From positions 34,796 through 98,795 of the forward strand of contig JAIETG010000010.1 in NCBI GenBank assembly GCA_019745395.1: DNA of 64,000 nucleotides, read 5' to 3'. Positions 53,403 through 61,675 of this stretch are shown here, in pieces. Each line of letters opens with the position of its first letter. Position 1 is the first letter of the stretch. The DNA is from Rhabdochlamydiaceae bacterium. Its GTDB lineage: Bacteria; Chlamydiota; Chlamydiia; Chlamydiales; Rhabdochlamydiaceae. The position numbers and the translations under genes are program-made. The notes below the pieces were generated by a model that was given only the letters and a program-made list of their open reading frames with translations, did not search any database and had not been told where the DNA came from.

Positions 53403-56400
53403 TTAGGAACGAGGGCAAACCCTCAATCCAATAATAGATGGTTCTCCATTGAGATCGACAGCATTACCTTCTAGATCGGATACAAAAGTAAAAGTACGCG
53501 CTAAAATTTCATGACAGATATATTCTTGATAGTGGTGGAAGCACTGCTCTACTTTAGGAGAAGTTTTCATCTCTACAAAAATCCGATCTGTTACTGCAAA
53601 CCCATGCTCTTTTCTCATAAGATTGATCTTATTAACGATTTCTCGAGCCAATCCCTCTTCTTCAAGCTCTGGAGTAAGAGCTGTATCTAAAGCTACAGTA
53701 ATCGCATCTAATGAGTGCGCGACAACTCCTTCCAATACCTTCCTCTCTACACTAATATCCTCTGAAGTCAGAACGATCCTCTCTCCTTCTACCTCTATTT
53801 CTACAGACTGACCTGAGAGGAGTTGTCTTAAATTCTTCTGATCAAAAAGGCGAACCGTTTGATGTACAGCATCCATTTTCTTGCCTACTTTTTTTCCTAA
53901 AAGACGGAAATTCGGCTTTGCTGTAAGGGCGACAAAAGCAGTTTCTTCAGCATGGTAGTGAACTTCTTTTACATTGAGCTCTTCTGCGATCAAATGCTGT
54001 TTTTGGCGTAAAGCAGCTAACGTCTTTGCATCCGATGAAACAACGTGAGCTTTAGAAAGTGGTTGTCTGACTTTGATTTTATGCTCTTTACGAAGAGCAT
54101 GACCACTACTAACCACCGCTTGCACAGCTGCCATCTCCTCTTCTAACGCCACATCTCTCAAGCCAGTATCCTCTTTAGGAAAATCGCAAAGATGAACAGA
54201 AGTAGAATCCTCATTTTTACGAAGCTGCTGATAGATTGCCTCACTTAAAAAAGGAATAAAAGGAGCGGAGATTTTAGCAAGATTGATCAAAACCGTATAC
54301 AAGGTTGCAAAAGCCTCTTCTCGGTCTTGAGACTGCACTTCCGACCAAAAACGACTACGACTTCTGCGAATATACCAATTAGTAAGCTGCTGAATAAATT
54401 CCACAAAAGGGGAAACAGCTTTGCTAAGATCGTAAGCATCCATATGAAATTGCACATCGCAAGTGAGTTTCTGCAATAAAGAAAGGATCCATCGATCAAT
54501 ATCTGCTTCAGGGAGCTTTTGTAAAACAGTCGGCTTCCATTGGTAAATATCGGCATAGGTGGAAAAAAAGATATAACAGTTCCAAAAAGGAATGAGGACT
54601 TGCCTCATAACAAGCTCTACACCTTTTTCTGAAAAACGCAGATCCTCTGCTTGCACAGCCGGGCTGTGCAAAAGATACAGTCTTATCGCATCTGCCCCGT
54701 ACTGGTTAATCACAGCATCAGGCTCTGGATAGTTTTTGAGCCGTTTGGACATTTTAGAGCCATCTTCTGCTAAAAGAATGCCATTGACGATCACGTTCTT
54801 AAAGGCAGGTTTATCAAATAAAGCTGCAGCTAAAACCGTTAATGTATAAAACCATCCCCTGGTTTGATCAAGTCCCTCTGCAATAAAGTCTGCAGGAAAA
54901 GCATCCATCGTCTCAGACTTATTTTCAAAAGGATAATGATTTTGCGCATAGGGCATAGAACCTGATTCAAACCAGCAATCAAATACTTCTGGGACTCTTC
55001 GGAAGATCTCTCCATCTTCTTCAAAAATCAGGTCATCGATAAAATGCCTATGGATATCGGTAATTTTTTGCCCAGTCTTTTTCTCAAGCTCTGCAATAGA
55101 GGAAATAACACGAATATCTCCTTTAACATTTCGCCAAAGTGGGATAGGAGTTCCCCAATATCGATTGCGAGACACAGCCCAGTCTCTAGCGTTTTCAAGC
55201 CACTTTCCAAACCTTCCATGCTGAATATGCTCTGGAACCCAATGAATTTTCTCATTAGCGGCAAGCATTTTATCTTTGATTTTTTCGACAGCGATAAACC
55301 AAGTTCTCACAGCTTTGTAAATCAAAGGAGTGTCTGATCTCCAGCAAAATGGATATCTATGACGAATTTGTCCATGATGAAAGACTTTCCCTTCCCCTTT
55401 GAGCCGCTTGATAATCTCTTTATCCGCATCTTTCACATAAGTTCCCTTTAAATCAGAAACTTCTTCTGTAAAGCGTCCATTAGAATCTACAGGACAAACA
55501 AGCTCAATACCAGCTTTCAAACAAGCATAAAAGTCTGTTTCACCAAAAGCTGGTGCTGCATGTACAAATCCTGTCCCCTCTTCGCTAGAAACATCGTCAT
55601 CTAAAAGGATTTGAAAGGCGCCCTCACTCATTTTGTCTGCAAAATAAGGAAGCAGTGGATGGTAACTTTGCCCCGCAAGCTTTTCGCCTGATATACGCTC
55701 GATCACTTCATACGCATCTTCAGATTTAAAATACCTTGGCAAAGAGCTTTCTGCCAAAAGATAACAAGATCCAGTTTCTTTTACATGGACCTTTGCATAC
55801 AAAATTTCCTTATGAGCTAAGATCGCTAAATTGGAAGGAAGAGTCCACGGGGTTGTCGTCCAAACGAGCAAATGCACTTTTGGATCTTCTTTCAATGCAA
55901 AAAGAACAGTTAAGGATGGATCATCTACGTCTTTGTAATTTAAATTCGCTTCAAAGTTAGAAAGAGGCGTTCCCAATTTCGCCGAAAAAGGCATTACTTT
56001 AAACCCTTCATATACAAGACCTTTTTCATAGAGCTGTCCAAAAACCCACCAAACAGACTCCATAAAAGACATATCCATCGTGTGGTACGTCCCATCAAAA
56101 GAAACCCAGCGTCCCATCCGATCGACGGTGCGCTTCCACTGTTCTGTATATCGTAAGACAATAGATCTACACTCTTCATTGAATTCTGGGATTCCAAAAC
56201 GCTCAATAGCAGAAGCTCCTGATAGTTCATTGGCTTTTTCAATCTCATTTTCGACAGGAAGGCCGTGGCAATCCCATCCAAAGCGTCTTGGGACATAAAA
56301 GCCCTTCATAGCTTTGTAACGAGGCAATACGTCTTTGATGGTTCCAGCCAAAATATGCCCATAGTGTGGAAGGCCTGTGGCAAAAGGAGGTCCGTCATAA

Positions 56401-56546
56401 AAAGAAAATAAAGGAGATCCCTTTCTTTGCTCCAAGGATTTTTCAAAAATTTTCTGAGACTTCCAGAATGCGAGGACTCTTTCTTCTCTATGAGGGAATG
56501 ACTCTTGTTGTTTATGTTCGAACATATTATTGCCGCTTTTTTTCAT
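53403..56546 (-). CDS. ileS: Isoleucine--tRNA ligase, type 2 (eukaryote-like)
   Basis: HIGH box PHYGHILAG, KMSKS box KMSKRLKNYPEP, CP1 editing domain, 1047 aa. Confidence 0.95.
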   Translation of the reverse strand: MKKSGNNMFEHKQQESFPHREERVLAFWKSQKIFEKSLEQRKGSPLFSFYDGPPFATGLPHYGHILAGTIKDVLPRYKAMKGFYVPRRFGWDCHGLPVENEIEKANELSGASAIERFGIPEFNEECRSIVLRYTEQWKRTVDRMGRWVSFDGTYHTMDMSFMESVWWVFGQLYEKGLVYEGFKVMPFSAKLGTPLSNFEANLNYKDVDDPSLTVLFALKEDPKVHLLVWTTTPWTLPSNLAILAHKEILYAKVHVKETGSCYLLAESSLPRYFKSEDAYEVIERISGEKLAGQSYHPLLPYFADKMSEGAFQILLDDDVSSEEGTGFVHAAPAFGETDFYACLKAGIELVCPVDSNGRFTEEVSDLKGTYVKDADKEIIKRLKGEGKVFHHGQIRHRYPFCWRSDTPLIYKAVRTWFIAVEKIKDKMLAANEKIHWVPEHIQHGRFGKWLENARDWAVSRNRYWGTPIPLWRNVKGDIRVISSIAELEKKTGQKITDIHRHFIDDLIFEEDGEIFRRVPEVFDCWFESGSMPYAQNHYPFENKSETMDAFPADFIAEGLDQTRGWFYTLTVLAAALFDKPAFKNVIVNGILLAEDGSKMSKRLKNYPEPDAVINQYGADAIRLYLLHSPAVQAEDLRFSEKGVELVMRQVLIPFWNCYIFFSTYADIYQWKPTVLQKLPEADIDRWILSLLQKLTCDVQFHMDAYDLSKAVSPFVEFIQQLTNWYIRRSRSRFWSEVQSQDREEAFATLYTVLINLAKISAPFIPFLSEAIYQQLRKNEDSTSVHLCDFPKEDTGLRDVALEEEMAAVQAVVSSGHALRKEHKIKVRQPLSKAHVVSSDAKTLAALRQKQHLIAEELNVKEVHYHAEETAFVALTAKPNFRLLGKKVGKKMDAVHQTVRLFDQKNLRQLLSGQSVEIEVEGERIVLTSEDISVERKVLEGVVAHSLDAITVALDTALTPELEEEGLAREIVNKINLMRKEHGFAVTDRIFVEMKTSPKVEQCFHHYQEYICHEILARTFTFVSDLEGNAVDLNGEPSIIGLRVCPRS

Positions 56547-56678
56547 AAGATTTTGTATAGGAATGTTATCTTATAAAACCCTTATCTTTCTAGAGGAATA
56601 AAAATACAGGGCAAAAAAACAGCCATTGACGCAAAAAAGCTTCCCATGGGAAGATAGATTCCCTATAGTAAAGATCTC

Positions 56679-57048
56679 GGGGGTGTACTGGTTTCGACTT
56701 GGAAATGAAGTAACGGTGGCATGCGGAGGTTGTTGGATGGCCTCCTTAAAAATCCAACAAAAACAATAATTGTCGAAACTAATGTTTACGATACGGAGTT
56801 AGCTGCTTAATAGCAGTTAATACCCGATAGCTTAAAACCTGACCAGGAGTTTTAAAACTATCGTCATTGACCCTGGTATGACCCTCAGCGTTTACCCTTT
56901 TTAAGCTGGGAAGTCGAGATCGCTAAGTAAGGGATCTAATCCGTAGAGGGGCGTCTTCCTTCAAGGTTAGTATTATCAGGAGGCGATAAGCATGTAGTCA
57001 TTGTTATAGAGTTTGCTAAGGACGAGAGTTCGATTCTCTCCACCTCCA
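56679..57048 (+). ncRNA. ssrA: tmRNA (SsrA)
   Basis: 5' GGGGGUGUACUGGUUUCGAC. 3' GGACGAGAGUUCGAUUCUCUCCACCUCCA (T-arm plus acceptor). The acceptor helix GGGGGUG/CACCUCC has the G3-U Ala identity pair. The internal tag frame ends ...VYDTELAA, followed by the double stop TAA TAG (~56808-56813). Confidence 0.9.
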
Positions 57049-58506
57049 ATTGCTTGGACACTCTTTGTATCCAATCATGGCATTAAACGGCTCACACACC
57101 TGTGTGAGCATGTTTTTACCATCTAATTTCAAGTTCTGAAACATCAAATTCAAAAGTTGTCGTTTTTCATCCACTTCAGAACTTTCGAATAGCTCCCTTG
57201 CACGAGATGCCAATTTTAGCACCATATTCGCTGTTATATAGAAGTTCTGGTCAGCAGTCTCATGCCTCTTCATTTCCTCTATAAGCTCAACCTGCCGAGC
57301 TTTGTATTCTTTGACCTTTTCGAGGTACATTACCTCATCAATGACTCCATCCAGCTTATCATCATAAATCTGGCTAATGCGTCGTTGTACTCGATCCTGC
57401 TCCTTCCGAAGTGCGGTCATGCTTTCCTTATGAAATCGAGCCTCAGAATGATGAATTTCCCTCAGATACTCAGTAATCGTTACAATCTGTTCTTCATTGA
57501 GGGCAATATGGTCAAAATATTCTAATAAAGGCTTTAACAGCTCTTCCTCTCGAACGTAGACCCTTTTACATCCGCCTTTCCCATTTGTGCAGCTATAGTA
57601 AATGTATTGTTTCTTTTTGATCTCTGGAGTCACCACACACCCGCAATGAGCGCAGGTGATCATTCCTTTTAAAATAAACGGCTTTGCCCTTGTTTTGTGA
57701 GGCTTTGACTGATACCCATCAATGATCTCCTGAACCCTCTTAAAAGTTCCAGGAGTCGTGAGACATTCGTAGTAGTGACTCACTACTCCATATTTGGTTT
57801 CCATGGTTCCGGCATAGAAAGGCTTCTTCAACAGCTTATTGATTTGAGATATTGCTAAAGGCTTTCCGTTCTTTGCACGAACCCCCATAGCAGTCAATTC
57901 TTCCTGCACCTTCCGCAGGGAATAACTTCCAGTCGCATAGAGTTCAAACATTTTAGTAATAAAAGGAGCTAAAGCAGGATCAGGTATGATCGTCTTATTC
58001 CCTTGTTCATCTACAGAATGAATATATCCTGTGGGAGCCAGCCCCATCCAAATACCGTTTCTAGCAGATTGCTCTTTAGCTCTTTTGATATTATCGCTCA
58101 GCTGAAGCACATACGACCTCGCGAACATCACACCCATATCCCAGCGAAGAATATCTGAGCTATTCGATTTCAAGTTGAGAACAAGCCCTTCACGAATGAA
58201 GTGAATCTCCACCTTACCTTCTTTTCGAAGGTCCTCCAATACAACCGACTCCTTAAAACCACGTTGAACTCTATCAACCGTATCAGCTACAAGGGCGATC
58301 GGCTCTTTTGACTTTTGGATTAGCTCCAAGATTTTTTGAAATTCTTTTCGGGTATCTTTAGTCGAAGACTCTGCAATAGCAAAAACCTGATAAACTTGAA
58401 GCCCTTTCCGCATGGCATATTCTTGAAGCCTACGTTCTTGCGCTGGAATACTCATTCCTTCTTGCTGTTCTCTAGAGGACACGCGAGCTAATAAAATTGC
58501 TTTCAT
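57016..58506 (-). CDS. Large serine recombinase (integrase)
   Basis: N-terminal resolvase domain MKAILLARVSSREQ (catalytic Ser), recombinase domain, zinc ribbon CAHCGC...YYSCTNGKGGCKR, coiled-coil region. The last ~11 codons (WRWRESNSRP) are the reverse complement of the tmRNA T-arm and acceptor. Confidence 0.9.
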   Translation of the reverse strand: MKAILLARVSSREQQEGMSIPAQERRLQEYAMRKGLQVYQVFAIAESSTKDTRKEFQKILELIQKSKEPIALVADTVDRVQRGFKESVVLEDLRKEGKVEIHFIREGLVLNLKSNSSDILRWDMGVMFARSYVLQLSDNIKRAKEQSARNGIWMGLAPTGYIHSVDEQGNKTIIPDPALAPFITKMFELYATGSYSLRKVQEELTAMGVRAKNGKPLAISQINKLLKKPFYAGTMETKYGVVSHYYECLTTPGTFKRVQEIIDGYQSKPHKTRAKPFILKGMITCAHCGCVVTPEIKKKQYIYYSCTNGKGGCKRVYVREEELLKPLLEYFDHIALNEEQIVTITEYLREIHHSEARFHKESMTALRKEQDRVQRRISQIYDDKLDGVIDEVMYLEKVKEYKARQVELIEEMKRHETADQNFYITANMVLKLASRARELFESSEVDEKRQLLNLMFQNLKLDGKNMLTQVCEPFNAMIGYKECPSNWRWRESNSRP

Positions 58507-58806: not shown

Positions 58807-59283
58807 TTAGCTAACTATTGAGAGACTTTCATCCCGTCTTTCCTCCTGAAGAGTTCTCAATTCCTTAAGTGCACGATATAGAAAATTTTCTAAAGACCGT
58901 TCATACCTCGATAAAACAACCATACTCGCAGATGAGCTACCGCTAAATACCTCTCGGTAAGAATAATCGTTAAAATAGTCGCTTTTTTCTTTTTCAAAGA
59001 TGAGGGTTTCAACGTGCACAATCCGTCTTAATCTCCATGCTGTAGAAATTACTCTATCTGCTAGAAAACTCTCCAAATTGCCTCGAGGAAATAAATTCTG
59101 AAGAATACTCTCACGAAAATCTTCATACACTTCCCTTTCTTCCTGGTTAATCAATACCTGAGAAGAGAGAATACCGTGCTTCACTGCATTCTGAGCAACA
59201 ACAGCCCTGCCCTGAATAGAAATAGGACCTGTTGATTTTTTAGCATTATTTCGATTTGCTTCAATTTGTTTGGTTGTAGTCAT
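58807..59283 (-). CDS. Hypothetical protein (island-borne)
   Basis: The track ORF starts at 59319. The ATG at ~59283 (MTTTKQIEANRNNAKKSTGP...) has AAGGAGGG upstream and is preferred. No motif recognised. Confidence 0.5.
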   Translation of the reverse strand: MTTTKQIEANRNNAKKSTGPISIQGRAVVAQNAVKHGILSSQVLINQEEREVYEDFRESILQNLFPRGNLESFLADRVISTAWRLRRIVHVETLIFEKEKSDYFNDYSYREVFSGSSSASMVVLSRYERSLENFLYRALKELRTLQEERRDESLSIVS

Positions 59284-59346
59284 CTTCACCCTCCTTTGTG
59301 GTGTCTGTCTGTCTTGCACCCTTAGGGAAAAGACAGACGGACATAC

Positions 59347-61074
59347 TTATTTCTTCCCTTTAACCTCCGGCAAATCACCTTTTTCCCGAGCCTTTTTAAC
59401 TAGTCCTTCTATTTTTGCCTTTGATACCTCTAGTTCCTTAGCAAGCTCTCTATATGATTTCTTTTTTAGAATGCCCTCAATAACTTCATCATATAGATCA
59501 TCTTGTACTTCTTGTATTTTCCAACAAAGAGCCCCATTCTCATCGCTCGCTAGATTGGCTATGAATGGTTCCGCATCATCGCCAAAAAAGCTTCTCGCTT
59601 TTTCGATATGTACCTCAAAAGAAGCCCCTTCAGAAAAAGCATAGCTGTCACTGTGTTTAAGCTTGATCACAGTATCAAGAGCATCCTCTCTTCGGCTTGT
59701 ACCTCTTGGTCTACCACTACGCCCAGCGTGATGAACAAGCAACACACTCACACCTTTTGTTCTAAGTTTTAAAATCCATGTTTGAATTGGAGCCCAAGCA
59801 TCGGCTTCGTTTTCTTGCATACCAGGCGCTAATGTAGAAAGATTGTCTAATATGACAAGCTTTGCATCCCATATTACGGCTTCTATAAGCTTTTGCCCAT
59901 ATTCCGTAGAAATATCCGGTATCCCATTTTCCTGGCGCTCGGGAGTAATCAGACGGAAATACGAAGGGTCTTTTAAATCGACTCCAAAGCCTGCTATGAG
60001 CTTTGTCATCCGATCCTGCATTAAATTTGCCGGCATTTCTCCATCTACATAGAGAACTTTAACTGATGTCTCGCACTTCCATTTAAGGAAAGAGGTACCG
60101 CTAGCAATGGCATAACCAATAGAAAGAGCTAAAAAGGTTTTTCCCACCCCCCGTTCGCTATATAGAAGTGCTAATCCTTGCGAAGGAATAATCGGTTCCA
60201 AAATCATTTTTCTTTCAGGAAAAGTCGTGGCCAAAAACTCTTGAATATTAAGCGTCACTAATCCCTGAGCAACACTTTCATTTTCGACTTGGAATTCCTC
60301 TGTTTTTTCAACTAATTCAAACAGTTTTTTTATCGTATGCCCATCGCGAAGCCAATCAGAGATATCTTGACCGCTTTTTTCCTGAAATTCTAATCCTGGA
60401 AGCTTTACGACTTTAACCCTCGCAACCTTTCCTTCTAAAAGGGATAACCATTGATCTCGACGCTTATGGCCAGCAGAGTCCTCATCGTAAAGAAGCACTA
60501 TGTCGCTACCTTTCAACTGGTCCACATATTCCCCTCGAAGACTAGAACCGGCTCCTTCAATTGGGGTGGTTGCGATAATCCCATGCAAGCGAAGCCTCTC
60601 AGCATCTTTTTCTCCTTCAACGAGAAATATTGACGTCCCCATTTCCTTTGCTTTGAGCACTTCTGGAAGATGATAAAGAACCCTCTGATCGCATTTTAAC
60701 CCTTTTTTCCATGCTCCAGATGCAGAATAGGTGGAAATATAGAACTTCTTATCTTCAGTCCTGATCTTTTTATAGAGGGGCTTTCCTGCCTCATCCTGAT
60801 AGATATATTCTATCCCGCCATCAGCATATTCCTGAATTTTGTCACGTTCAGGAAACAATGCAGTCATCTCGAGCCCGATAGCATTACAAATCTCCTCTGC
60901 GGCACAACCCGCAAAACACTTCAATAAAATTTTTCCATTAGAAGCTTCAGCTATCGATAAGCTTGGACTGGTATCTCTATGTGCAGGACAAAGTGTGCTA
61001 AACCCATCACCCACTCTTTTTGCTGATGAGCCTACTTTAGACTCTAGACATTGTAAAAAATCACCTATATACAT
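59347..61074 (-). CDS. Primase-helicase: Zn-binding primase motif, Toprim and RecA-like (RepA/AAA_25-type) ATPase
   Basis: CPAHRDTSPSLSI...CFAGC zinc motif. Toprim IFLVEGEKDAERL ... LLYDEDSAGHKR. Walker A SERGVGKTF. Walker B LVILDNLSTL. The track ORF extends to 61146 but would then overlap the upstream gene by 47 nt; the ATG at ~61074 (MYIGDF) avoids this. Confidence 0.85.
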   Translation of the reverse strand: MYIGDFLQCLESKVGSSAKRVGDGFSTLCPAHRDTSPSLSIAEASNGKILLKCFAGCAAEEICNAIGLEMTALFPERDKIQEYADGGIEYIYQDEAGKPLYKKIRTEDKKFYISTYSASGAWKKGLKCDQRVLYHLPEVLKAKEMGTSIFLVEGEKDAERLRLHGIIATTPIEGAGSSLRGEYVDQLKGSDIVLLYDEDSAGHKRRDQWLSLLEGKVARVKVVKLPGLEFQEKSGQDISDWLRDGHTIKKLFELVEKTEEFQVENESVAQGLVTLNIQEFLATTFPERKMILEPIIPSQGLALLYSERGVGKTFLALSIGYAIASGTSFLKWKCETSVKVLYVDGEMPANLMQDRMTKLIAGFGVDLKDPSYFRLITPERQENGIPDISTEYGQKLIEAVIWDAKLVILDNLSTLAPGMQENEADAWAPIQTWILKLRTKGVSVLLVHHAGRSGRPRGTSRREDALDTVIKLKHSDSYAFSEGASFEVHIEKARSFFGDDAEPFIANLASDENGALCWKIQEVQDDLYDEVIEGILKKKSYRELAKELEVSKAKIEGLVKKAREKGDLPEVKGKK

Positions 61075-61099
61075 TTTTAATACATCCTTTTTAAATCCG

Positions 61100-61363
61100 T
61101 TAATAATCAAAGATTTCCTTTGCTTTATTGAAAATACACCTCTCAATTTCTTTGCTTAAATTTGGAGAAATCGGGTGAAACAATGGCTCTTTAAGAGAAC
61201 TTCCTGAGCGTGTTGGATAAGTTAATCGATATCCGCCACCATCCTTGCGCATGTGAATAGCAATCGAATGAAGCACTAGCTGCTCATCTATCTCCACCAC
61301 TGCAAATCCGATGAGACCCTGTTGAGGACGAATGGGAATGATCTCTACTTTTGATATCTTCAT
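61100..61363 (-). CDS. SpoVG-family protein
   Basis: MKISKVEIIPIRPQQGLIGFAVVEIDEQLVLHSIAIHMRKDGGGYRLTYPTR...LFHPIS parallels SpoVG (M.vTdVrl......g.....A.asit.d..fvvhdirvi.g..G.fvamPs.r.......d..HPI). AGAGG RBS. Confidence 0.65.
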   Translation of the reverse strand: MKISKVEIIPIRPQQGLIGFAVVEIDEQLVLHSIAIHMRKDGGGYRLTYPTRSGSSLKEPLFHPISPNLSKEIERCIFNKAKEIFDY

Positions 61364-61675
61364 TGTTACCTCTTTTTTGACGCTCTAACCGAAGATCAAT
61401 ATCCATCAGCAATCCAAAGAATCGATTCAATCTCTCCGATTCTTGGTTCTCGCTAAGCGGATATGAATTTCCAGTTTTGTTTTTAAGCATGCCTTCATCG
61501 TAACACCCCATTTCTCAAAAATAGGCTTTACGTGAACGAACGTGAAAATTCACATTGCTTAGAGGTGTAATCGTGGAATTAAAAATTTAATTAATTAGAC
61601 GTTGAGATAGCTCTACCTACTTCATGGACAACAAGATAGAAATAAGGTATATTGTAACCTTTATTAAGGTTGGAT

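Follow-up and report, generated by a model that had tools for sequence, protein, structure and literature searches.

A large serine recombinase gene that ends inside ssrA at the probable left edge of a mobile element in a Rhabdochlamydiaceae bacterium

The ssrA gene and the recombinase gene that converges on it

We analysed a stretch of 64,000 nucleotides from a Rhabdochlamydiaceae bacterium (contig JAIETG010000010.1 of assembly GCA_019745395.1, positions 34,796 to 98,795; hereafter the window), in which ssrA, the gene for transfer-messenger RNA (tmRNA), and the gene for a large serine recombinase (LSR) converge and overlap at their 3′ ends. An original prediction, made from the sequence of the window, had read this overlap as the edge of a genomic island inserted at ssrA by the recombinase. 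ARAGORN identified one tmRNA gene in the window, and the Rfam model RF00023 matched ssrA over its full length at 156 bits. The 3′ end of ssrA reads GAGAG-TTCGATT-CTCTC-CACCTCC-A with the bases att directly after it; hence no CCA is encoded. The T-arm occupies 57024..57040 (T-stem 5′ strand, 57024..57028; T-loop, 57029..57035), the acceptor 3′ strand 57041..57047 and the discriminator 57048, and the acceptor 3′ strand pairs with GGGGGTG at 56679..56685, a G3:U wobble included. Upstream of ssrA lies the gene for isoleucyl-tRNA synthetase (IleRS; 53403..56546, minus strand).

The recombinase open reading frame (ORF) shares 33 nt with ssrA (57016..57048). Over its last 11 codons (NWRWRESNSRP) it reads the T-arm and acceptor in antisense, and its stop codon, TAG at 57016..57018, lies within the host ssrA. 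Residues 1-490 are encoded by the element; residues 491-496 (ESNSRP) and the stop are host ssrA read in antisense. The original prediction of a serine recombinase of about 500 residues, transcribed toward ssrA and overlapping the T-arm and acceptor by 33 nt with its last 11 or so codons, agreed with these coordinates, and of the protein features that it named, the catalytic motif and the zinc ribbon were found and the coiled coil was predicted.

Pfam assigned residues 3-152 to Resolvase (PF00239, E 3e-13), residues 179-263 to Recombinase (PF07508) and residues 278-329 to Zn_ribbon_recom (PF13408). The protein carries the motif ARVSSREQ; among the 91 homologues from which we built a family profile, the nucleophile S10 was nearly invariant and the zinc-ribbon cysteines C285, C288, C290 and C306 were invariant. 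A single-sequence phmmer search of the PDB with the recombinase returned nothing, and the family profile was needed to reach the A118 serine integrase structures 4KIS and 6DNW (E 3e-12). The A118 integrase shares about 23% identity with the window enzyme over residues 1-464, where the alignment stops. The AlphaFold model (mean predicted local distance difference test score, pLDDT, 81) predicted two long antiparallel helices (338-385 and 391-414), as for a coiled coil, before C-terminal strands at 456-470, while confidence was low at residues 483-496 and the tail was predicted to be disordered. By analogy with LSR biochemistry, the enzyme would be expected to catalyse integration. No second serine recombinase and no tRNA gene other than ssrA was found in the 64-kb window.

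Attachment sites and complete islands in related loci

For comparison we fetched 80 loci from GTDB species genomes, 2 from metagenomes and 4 Logan contigs, a subset of the more than 1000 homologues of the window recombinase, and attachment sites were compared over 84 related loci. Every locus was searched with the last 13 nt of ssrA, and the sites were read in the ssrA-sense orientation; an E. coli-like consensus of the tmRNA 3′ end gave no match, and the window's own ssrA end was used instead. Four kinds of site were found. Left attachment sites (attL, 23 sites) read GGACGAGAGTTCGATT / CTCTCCACCTCCA / ATTGGTTGGA (also written ATTGGTTGGAyny), followed by the recombinase gene. Right attachment sites (attR, 9 sites) read TCCAATCAAAAGTTCTGAATGCGT / CTCTCCACCTCCA / downstream flank, and 7 of the 9 flanks carry an intrinsic-terminator-like hairpin with a T-run, which the comparison identifies as the native ssrA terminator. 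Three junctions resemble the attachment site of a free element (attP), with the arm found at attR (the P arm), the core and then another recombinase 3′ end, inside tandem arrays. One site, in L044, resembles the empty chromosomal site (attB): here ssrA is followed directly by its terminator. The occupied locus L004 is 89% identical to L044, and this identity begins exactly at the ssrA 3′ end.

The 13-15 nt common to all four kinds of site form a core that holds the last T-loop base, the T-stem 3′ strand, the acceptor 3′ strand, the discriminator and one further base. Because the core is shared by all four, the crossover must fall within 57035..57049 (coordinates of the arms are given in Table 1). 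Inverted-repeat analysis showed that the motif TTGCTTGGA in the P′ arm (57050..57058) mirrors TCCAAyCAA of the P arm, and in the reconstructed attP the outer inverted repeats, TCCAAyCAA and TTGGTTGGA, are symmetric about the T just 5′ of CTCTC. This symmetry weakly suggests a 2-bp crossover at TC, 57035..57036, at the junction of T-loop and T-stem. For the window element, the expected attP junction would read ..TGTCCAAGCAATTGGAGGTGGAGAGACGCnTTCAGAAC...

These comparisons placed attP inside the end of the recombinase gene, in line with the original prediction that attL lies within or very near that 3′ end. Two origins had been considered for the functional ssrA 3′ end, preservation by a crossover just downstream or supply by the element; the first fell away and the second stood, the last 13-14 nt coming from the element. 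The remark that the window holds no long direct repeat was correct, but its use as a sign of a serine mechanism was not, since relatives have a direct repeat of 13-15 nt; the repeat is absent from the window, probably because the island runs past 64000. As had also been expected, the other island end does not lie within the window, where neither core nor P arm is repeated and cargo genes continue to 64000.

Several further observations concern the sites. The three attP-like junctions (L003 at ~1195, L037 at ~388 and L039 at ~529) lie inside chromosomes, with elements of the family in tandem; classical serine integrases are not expected to take attL as a target. In L044 (12473..18349), ssrA and its terminator look unoccupied, a junction of P arm and core lies 5.8 kb downstream, and a second copy of the terminator follows, with a truncated recombinase past it; this could be a decayed or rearranged island. 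A 5-bp shift of AGTTC between the left arms of attP and attB recalls the zinc-ribbon-domain offset in the A118 model; we did not build on it, as the right arms show nothing like it. The 9-mer AGTTCTGAA (57133..57141) occurs about 85-95 nt past ssrA in all relatives and encodes a conserved FQNL motif; it is also the conserved centre of the P arm (AAAAGTTCTGAATGCGT), which could be a coincidence of coding constraint or point to a secondary binding site.

Both junctions of an island were seen at several loci. L083 is syntenic with the window (IleRS, ssrA and an LSR 83% identical to ours, in equal gene order), and its two junctions are 13.6 kb apart. The other complete islands measure 6.6 kb (L005), 6.8 kb (L030), 5.3 kb (L032), 10.6 kb (L033, tRNA-Tyr) and, for L062 and L076 (tRNA-Gln), 5.9 and 4.6 kb, so that whole islands in relatives range from 4.6 to 13.6 kb. 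No tyrosine integrase was found in the complete islands L005 and L076, where the LSR is the sole site-specific recombinase. Islands appear to carry defence genes. The cargo of L083 (11268..18318) consists of a type I restriction-modification system (HsdM, HsdS, HsdR) together with an RNase H-like and an HNH nuclease gene, and an HTH_3/ImmA-like gene lies just outside its attR. The chromosome OY969795.1 has three copies, one beside ssrA and two elsewhere with tRNA-derived fragments. Decayed copies also occur, with in-frame stops in the LSR tail region of L022 and L030 and truncated genes in L044 and L078.

The Logan contig L085 has a 30-nt terminal overlap, equal to k-1 of the assembler (k, word length), and forms a circle of 9125 bp once trimmed. 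The closed junction is spanned by a 912-aa ORF, the contig lacks tRNA and tmRNA genes, and the LSR, 78% identical to that of the window, is in the attP form, reading through attP. L085 is either an excised replicating element or a collapsed tandem array, and attP is displayed in either case. Among 21 whole-contig loci, circularity was negative throughout, and L085, which was added later, was the only circular one. Together, both junctions, variable cargo, stacked copies, an unoccupied ssrA and the circular contig bore out the original prediction of an island inserted at ssrA by the LSR.

The recombinase 3′ ends of the 80 GTDB genome loci were classified by what they face. A convergent tmRNA gene was found at 16 of them and a convergent tRNA gene at 31 (Tyr, Asn, Gln, Ser, Leu, Trp, Glu, Met, His); 15 face a T-loop-containing fragment only, 11 nothing of this kind, and at 7 the 3′ end is missing (gene truncated in 6, contig end in 1). 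An intact tRNA or tmRNA gene thus abuts or overlaps the recombinase end at 47 of 80 loci, in the same frame, and because this frame does not shift with respect to the RNA gene, the C-terminal peptides can be recognised as antisense translations (..WRWRESNSRP for the tmRNA type; ..WGRLDSNQRRP.. for the tRNA type). The hosts, as labelled, include Chlamydiota, Verrucomicrobia, Saccharibacteria, Kazan, Parcubacteria, Peribacteria and others, the Verrucomicrobiota ones being metagenome-assembled genomes. The tRNA-Gln islands of Saccharibacteria have an 18-nt repeat whose start lies two bases into the T-loop. At a chlamydial tRNA-Tyr island, essentially the same P arm (ACGCnTTnAGAACTTTTGATTGG) as in the tmRNA type adjoins the repeat; on these sequences, the core appears to have been exchanged between the two types and the arms kept. 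Further homologues were seen on the 231-kb plasmid NZ_AP017978.1 of Neochlamydia sp. S13 (135070..136422, 62% identity) and on two unannotated 'Bacteriophage sp.' contigs of 6.4 and 9.3 kb from human faeces (32-35% identity).

A second type of island also uses ssrA. It has a 21-nt repeat, GTTCGATTCTCTCCACCTCCA, preceded by CCGT, and in L012 (11459..15627), L084 (4066..5387), L030 (~1400) and the 98%-identical P0001 the recombinase faces only this 21-nt ssrA fragment. A YhcG/DUF1016 nuclease gene adjoins the 21-nt junction in L012 and L084, and a tyrosine integrase lies a few kb further on in L012 and P0001. Judged from these junctions, serine-type and tyrosine-type islands stack at ssrA, each with its own repeat length.

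The remaining genes of the window island are listed in Table 1; homologues were counted by tblastn over the 84 loci, and each count given includes 2 copies of the window element. The HTH_17 gene lies 3 nt upstream of the recombinase start, has a homologue in 20 of 84 loci, and in several relatives lies about 2 kb from the recombinase rather than adjoining it; its product is a candidate directionality factor or regulator. The primase-helicase would imply replication after excision. An exact-protein look-up found no record of the 433-aa ORF with its TTG start. At the N-terminus of the cargo protein, Pfam identified five stretches of DUF4379 (E 5e-86) with the consensus WWKCxxGxDHEWEAxVxxRTSxGxGCPYCxG. 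The corresponding 216-nt tandem array (63099..64000) had first been taken as non-coding; this was rejected, as it encodes the zinc-finger repeats. Relatives carry DUF4379 and ResIII helicase proteins at the cargo position, one with a methyltransferase domain, and the enzyme encoded by the cargo gene may serve in defence or modification. The six complete island ORFs and the partial seventh lack a Phage_integrase domain in Pfam searches. Unrelated to the island, a thiamine pyrophosphate riboswitch was found at 21661..21769 on the minus strand (Rfam RF00059, 73 bits).

Table 1. Positions of the features at ssrA and in the island, with the evidence for each
Feature	Position in window	Strand	Evidence and remarks
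Promoter-like site for ssrA (TTCCCA, 17 nt, TATAGT)	56641..56669	+	Consensus scan only, weak; ends 10 nt before the tmRNA 5′ end
tmRNA gene ssrA	56679..57048	+	ARAGORN; tag VETNVYDTELAA; CCA not encoded
B arm of attL, host ssrA up to the T-loop	57010..57034	+	Same in the unoccupied ssrA of L044 and in all 23 attL; unlike the P arm at attR
Large serine recombinase, 496 aa	57016..58506	-	ATG start, begins MKAILLARVSSREQ; Pfam, profile, model
Identity block (core), T CTCTCCACCTCCA A	57035..57049	+	13-15 nt common to attL, attR, attP-like and attB-like sites
P′ arm of attL, element DNA within the recombinase coding sequence	57050..57075	+	Conserved in 23 attL and 3 attP-like sites
Terminator-like hairpin, GCTCACACACCTGTGTGAGC + ATGTTTTTAC	57090..57119	+	Terminator scan; fold -25.6 kcal/mol, z -4.0
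MerR/HTH_17 excisionase-type DNA-binding protein, 64 aa	58510..58704	-	Pfam; PHROGs excisionase and MerR-like families
170-aa protein, function unknown	58807..59319	-	No Pfam or PHROG match; conserved across the family of elements; tblastn homologue in 21/84 loci
Primase-helicase (CHC2 zinc finger, Toprim, AAA_25); replication module	59347..61146	-	Pfam, PHROGs, tblastn
SpoVG-like protein, 87 aa	61100..61363	-	PF04026 just over cut-off; conserved across the family of elements; tblastn homologue in 29/84 loci
433-aa protein, function unknown	61670..62971	+	Homologues at the same position in relatives
Cargo gene, 5′ part, running off the window	62968..64000	+	Translation; five 72-aa DUF4379 treble-clef zinc-finger repeats

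Proposed integration and the alternatives weighed

Splicing attL to attR in four complete islands showed that the recombinase gene has two ends. In the integrated form its product ends in ..NWRWR-ESNSRP*, to which a few residues are added in some cases. The excised ORF reads ..NWRWRDAFRTFDW.. and extends 18-31 codons further, giving ..NWRWR-DAFRTFDW and 10 to more than 30 unrelated residues. The stop codon and the C-terminal residues therefore do differ between the two forms, as originally proposed. Even distant members share DAFRTFDW, the eight residues with which the excised tail begins, and tails of the form xFRTxxW also occur in the database proteins P0015, P0023, P0071 and P0103. A conserved protein motif xFRTxxW was considered and rejected, as it coincides exactly with P-arm DNA and conservation ends with the arm; a constraint at the DNA level thus explains the conservation.

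On the ssrA strand, 42 nt past ssrA and antisense within the recombinase ORF, lies a terminator-like hairpin. It is kept in 10 of 20 aligned relatives (11 of 21 sequences counting the window), where 100% of alignment cells are paired and 2 of 8 pairs are compensatory, arising through coordinated codon changes. The remaining relatives have a different conserved palindrome lacking a T-run, and L005 has a long-range stem with T7. The hairpin is most likely the replacement for the lost ssrA terminator; it may terminate or stabilise tmRNA precursors and limit antisense transcription into the recombinase gene.

Comparison of sequences establishes the attachment sites and the direct repeat, the supply of the 3′ end by the element, the two tails of the ORF, a circular form and, across the family, the association with tRNA and tmRNA genes. 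We consider it highly probable that the segment is the attL of an integrated, probably still mobile, serine-recombinase element in ssrA. Following LSR biochemistry, the enzyme would recombine attP, placed within the final ~15 codons of the recombinase gene itself, with attB, in which the end of ssrA (T-arm and acceptor) is joined to the ssrA terminator. Because the element carries the core block, integration would rebuild an intact tmRNA gene, with the element supplying the last 13-14 nt of mature tmRNA (T-stem 3′ strand, acceptor 3′ strand and discriminator). The original last 13 nt of the host gene and the native terminator would be displaced to attR at the far end, and the embedded hairpin would take over from that terminator. 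Codons 491-496 and the stop of the recombinase gene would be host DNA in the integrated form (..NWRWR|ESNSRP*) and P arm in the excised form (..NWRWR|DAFRTFDW).

Several points weigh against this reading or limit it. The copy in the window is at least 7 kb long and its right end lies beyond the window: its attR is unseen, core and P arm do not recur, and no second copy of the ssrA 3′ end (mismatches allowed) or of the P arm was found in the whole 64 kb. An exact-protein look-up and a metagenome scan for a public contig running past 64000 recovered none. In public data the window recombinase was found only on Logan contigs of 4-10 kb that end at the repeat-rich cargo gene, and the metagenome scan returned only relatives at 60-64% identity. 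The L085 circle could have arisen when a tandem array was assembled, the hairpin with a T-run occurs in only about half of the relatives, and the symmetry that places the crossover is a weak signal (score 0.382 vs 0.374 for the runner-up centre). Excision and integration are read here from sequence comparison.

Since the attR of this copy is unseen, its far end could have been lost, and its activity is unproven. The element may accordingly have integrated as described and then been stranded, with attR deleted or degraded and excision impossible, as the absence of attR, core repeat or P arm within 7 kb downstream and the decayed relatives L022, L030, L044 and L078 would allow. We regard such a remnant as unlikely: none of the six island ORFs in the window is broken, the reading frame of the cargo gene that begins at 62968 stays open up to position 64000, several kb more precede the P arm in relatives that share the DUF4379-helicase cargo, and the identical element is present in independent assemblies, L001 (3 samples) and L002. 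SRR15085128 and SRR22372527 are among the samples that contain it.

A separate question is whether the exchange of C-termini is a real regulatory switch, for example with a long form proficient in integration and a short form that is prone to excision or inactive. The two tails do differ in sequence, DAFRTFDW has been kept across distant members, and McMurdie et al. proposed the same for the Dehalococcoides recombinase DsiB (PMC3146451). Yet the conserved part of the excised tail matches P-arm DNA exactly, so a DNA constraint suffices; past the P arm the tails are unrelated and run for 10 to more than 30 residues, and integrated tails carry 0 to more than 70 extra residues, varying with the target gene. 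Moreover, residues 483-496 are of low confidence in the model, and the A118 integrase aligns only to residue 464. The functional, integration-dependent switch that the original prediction raised found no support, the exchanged tail being variable in sequence and length and predicted to be disordered, and we think it doubtful.

A different enzyme, such as a tyrosine integrase past 64000, might have inserted the island, with the LSR a passenger resolvase or invertase. The right part of the island is unseen, and in relatives the same ssrA is used by the tyrosine-integrase islands whose 21-nt repeat lies beside the YhcG gene. The junction in the window, however, is of the 13-15-nt type, with its P′ arm in the LSR gene, and not of the 21-nt type. 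The LSR stands alone as site-specific recombinase in complete islands of 4.6 and 6.6 kb, the overlap of gene and attachment site stays in frame across the LSR clade while the targets differ, and from the tmRNA type to the tRNA-Tyr type the core changes but the P arm does not. Taken together, this makes insertion by another enzyme very improbable.

That the recombinase is a fixed, domesticated chromosomal gene converging on ssrA by chance, as its place beside ssrA in 17 relatives at 68-86% identity (16 GTDB loci and L083) could suggest in the manner of synteny, is hardly credible given that the direct repeat and P arm recur at a variable 5-14 kb with differing cargo, that ssrA in L044 directly adjoins its own terminator, that a circular attP form exists, that OY969795.1 has two of its three copies away from ssrA, and that close homologues are placed at various tRNA genes, among them those for Tyr, Leu, Gln and Asn.

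Relation to known integration systems

The original prediction knew only of tyrosine integrases at tmRNA 3′ ends. A premise that confines ssrA to such enzymes is outdated: in Dehalococcoides, ssrA islands carry DsiB (ACZ62382), a serine recombinase of 540 aa with a 3′ end that in every case overlaps attL, with a 20-bp repeat, insertion in the T-loop and islands in tandem (McMurdie et al. 2011, BMC Genomics 12:287, PMC3146451). McMurdie et al. also raised the possibility that a complete enzyme is encoded by the circle alone (PMC3146451). The kind of arrangement described here is thus already known from Dehalococcoides, the idea about the C-terminus included. As in the DsiB islands, compared here by their published description, the LSR lies beside attL and is transcribed toward ssrA, its 3′ end overlaps attL or ssrA and its stop codon lies outside the island; insertion is in the T-loop region and islands stack in tandem downstream of ssrA. 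The two differ in host (Chlamydiota and the Planctomycetes-Verrucomicrobia-Chlamydiae group here, Chloroflexota there), in the repeat (13-15 nt vs 20 bp) and in the crossover zone (probably the T-loop/T-stem junction here, mid-loop there). Their modules are also unlike: LSR, HTH_17, 170-aa protein, primase-helicase and SpoVG-like protein here, and six genes there, with DsiB, the small serine recombinase DsiA, RecF-like, ParB and Mom proteins and an embedded tRNA-Gly-like gene. Unlike what is described for DsiB, the targets of relatives of the window enzyme include ordinary tRNA genes.

Possibly new are the breadth of the clade, the use of both tRNA and tmRNA targets, an attP in the enzyme's own gene and the apparent retargeting by core exchange. 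A search of the literature on serine recombinases at tRNA or tmRNA genes in Chlamydiae or the candidate phyla radiation (CPR) found nothing beyond the Dehalococcoides paper. The largest LSR survey, a preprint, classed targets by protein families only and never mentioned tRNA, and the Islander paper (2014) stated that serine-family integrases were not known to target tRNA genes. We lean, by a narrow measure, towards the view that the window enzyme represents a large LSR clade, of which our searches found no description, dedicated to the T-arm and acceptor end of tRNA and tmRNA genes and apparently retargeted by swapping a core of about 14 nt. If true, this would overturn the textbook position by which tRNA genes are left to tyrosine integrases, and it would provide naturally retargetable serine integrases for highly conserved sequences. 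With its ~80 relatives, the locus makes of the Dehalococcoides exception a widespread strategy in poorly studied phyla that reaches at least nine tRNA species. Serine integrases are preferred tools for inserting large DNA, and enzymes for tRNA and tmRNA ends with a seemingly core-shifted specificity would be attractive starting points for engineering, for example in Chlamydiae or CPR bacteria that have no genetic tools. In Chlamydiota, ssrA emerges as a hot spot where serine-type and tyrosine-type islands stack, with restriction-modification and helicase cargo. Within 100 nt, the two strands of the locus also accommodate a terminator and the end of an essential RNA gene together with a recombinase ORF and the attP that belongs to it.

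With the phage serine integrases (A118/LI, TP901-1, Bxb1, phiC31), the window enzyme shares the domain order, short attachment sites and imperfect inverted-repeat arms. To our knowledge, the characterised phage-type LSRs use protein-coding or intergenic targets, with few bases common to attP and attB; here, in contrast, the target is an RNA gene, and attP holds a 14-15-nt copy of the target end inside the integrase's own gene. The tRNA and tmRNA islands of tyrosine integrases are alike in that the 3′ part of the gene is targeted, the element brings the displaced piece of the gene and so restores it, a displaced fragment marks the far end and islands stack. They differ in enzyme family and chemistry and, among the relatives, in the repeat, which is 21 nt long in tyrosine-type and 13-15 nt in serine-type islands. 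In the SSV1-type archaeal integrases and the integration-dependent immunity of mycobacteriophages, attP lies inside a gene and integration changes its product. The recombinases there are of the tyrosine family, and the change is known to matter: either the gene is split or its product loses a degradation tag. The window element resembles them in having its attachment site in an element coding sequence, the integrated and free forms encoding different proteins, but differs in that only the last few, apparently unstructured, residues change.

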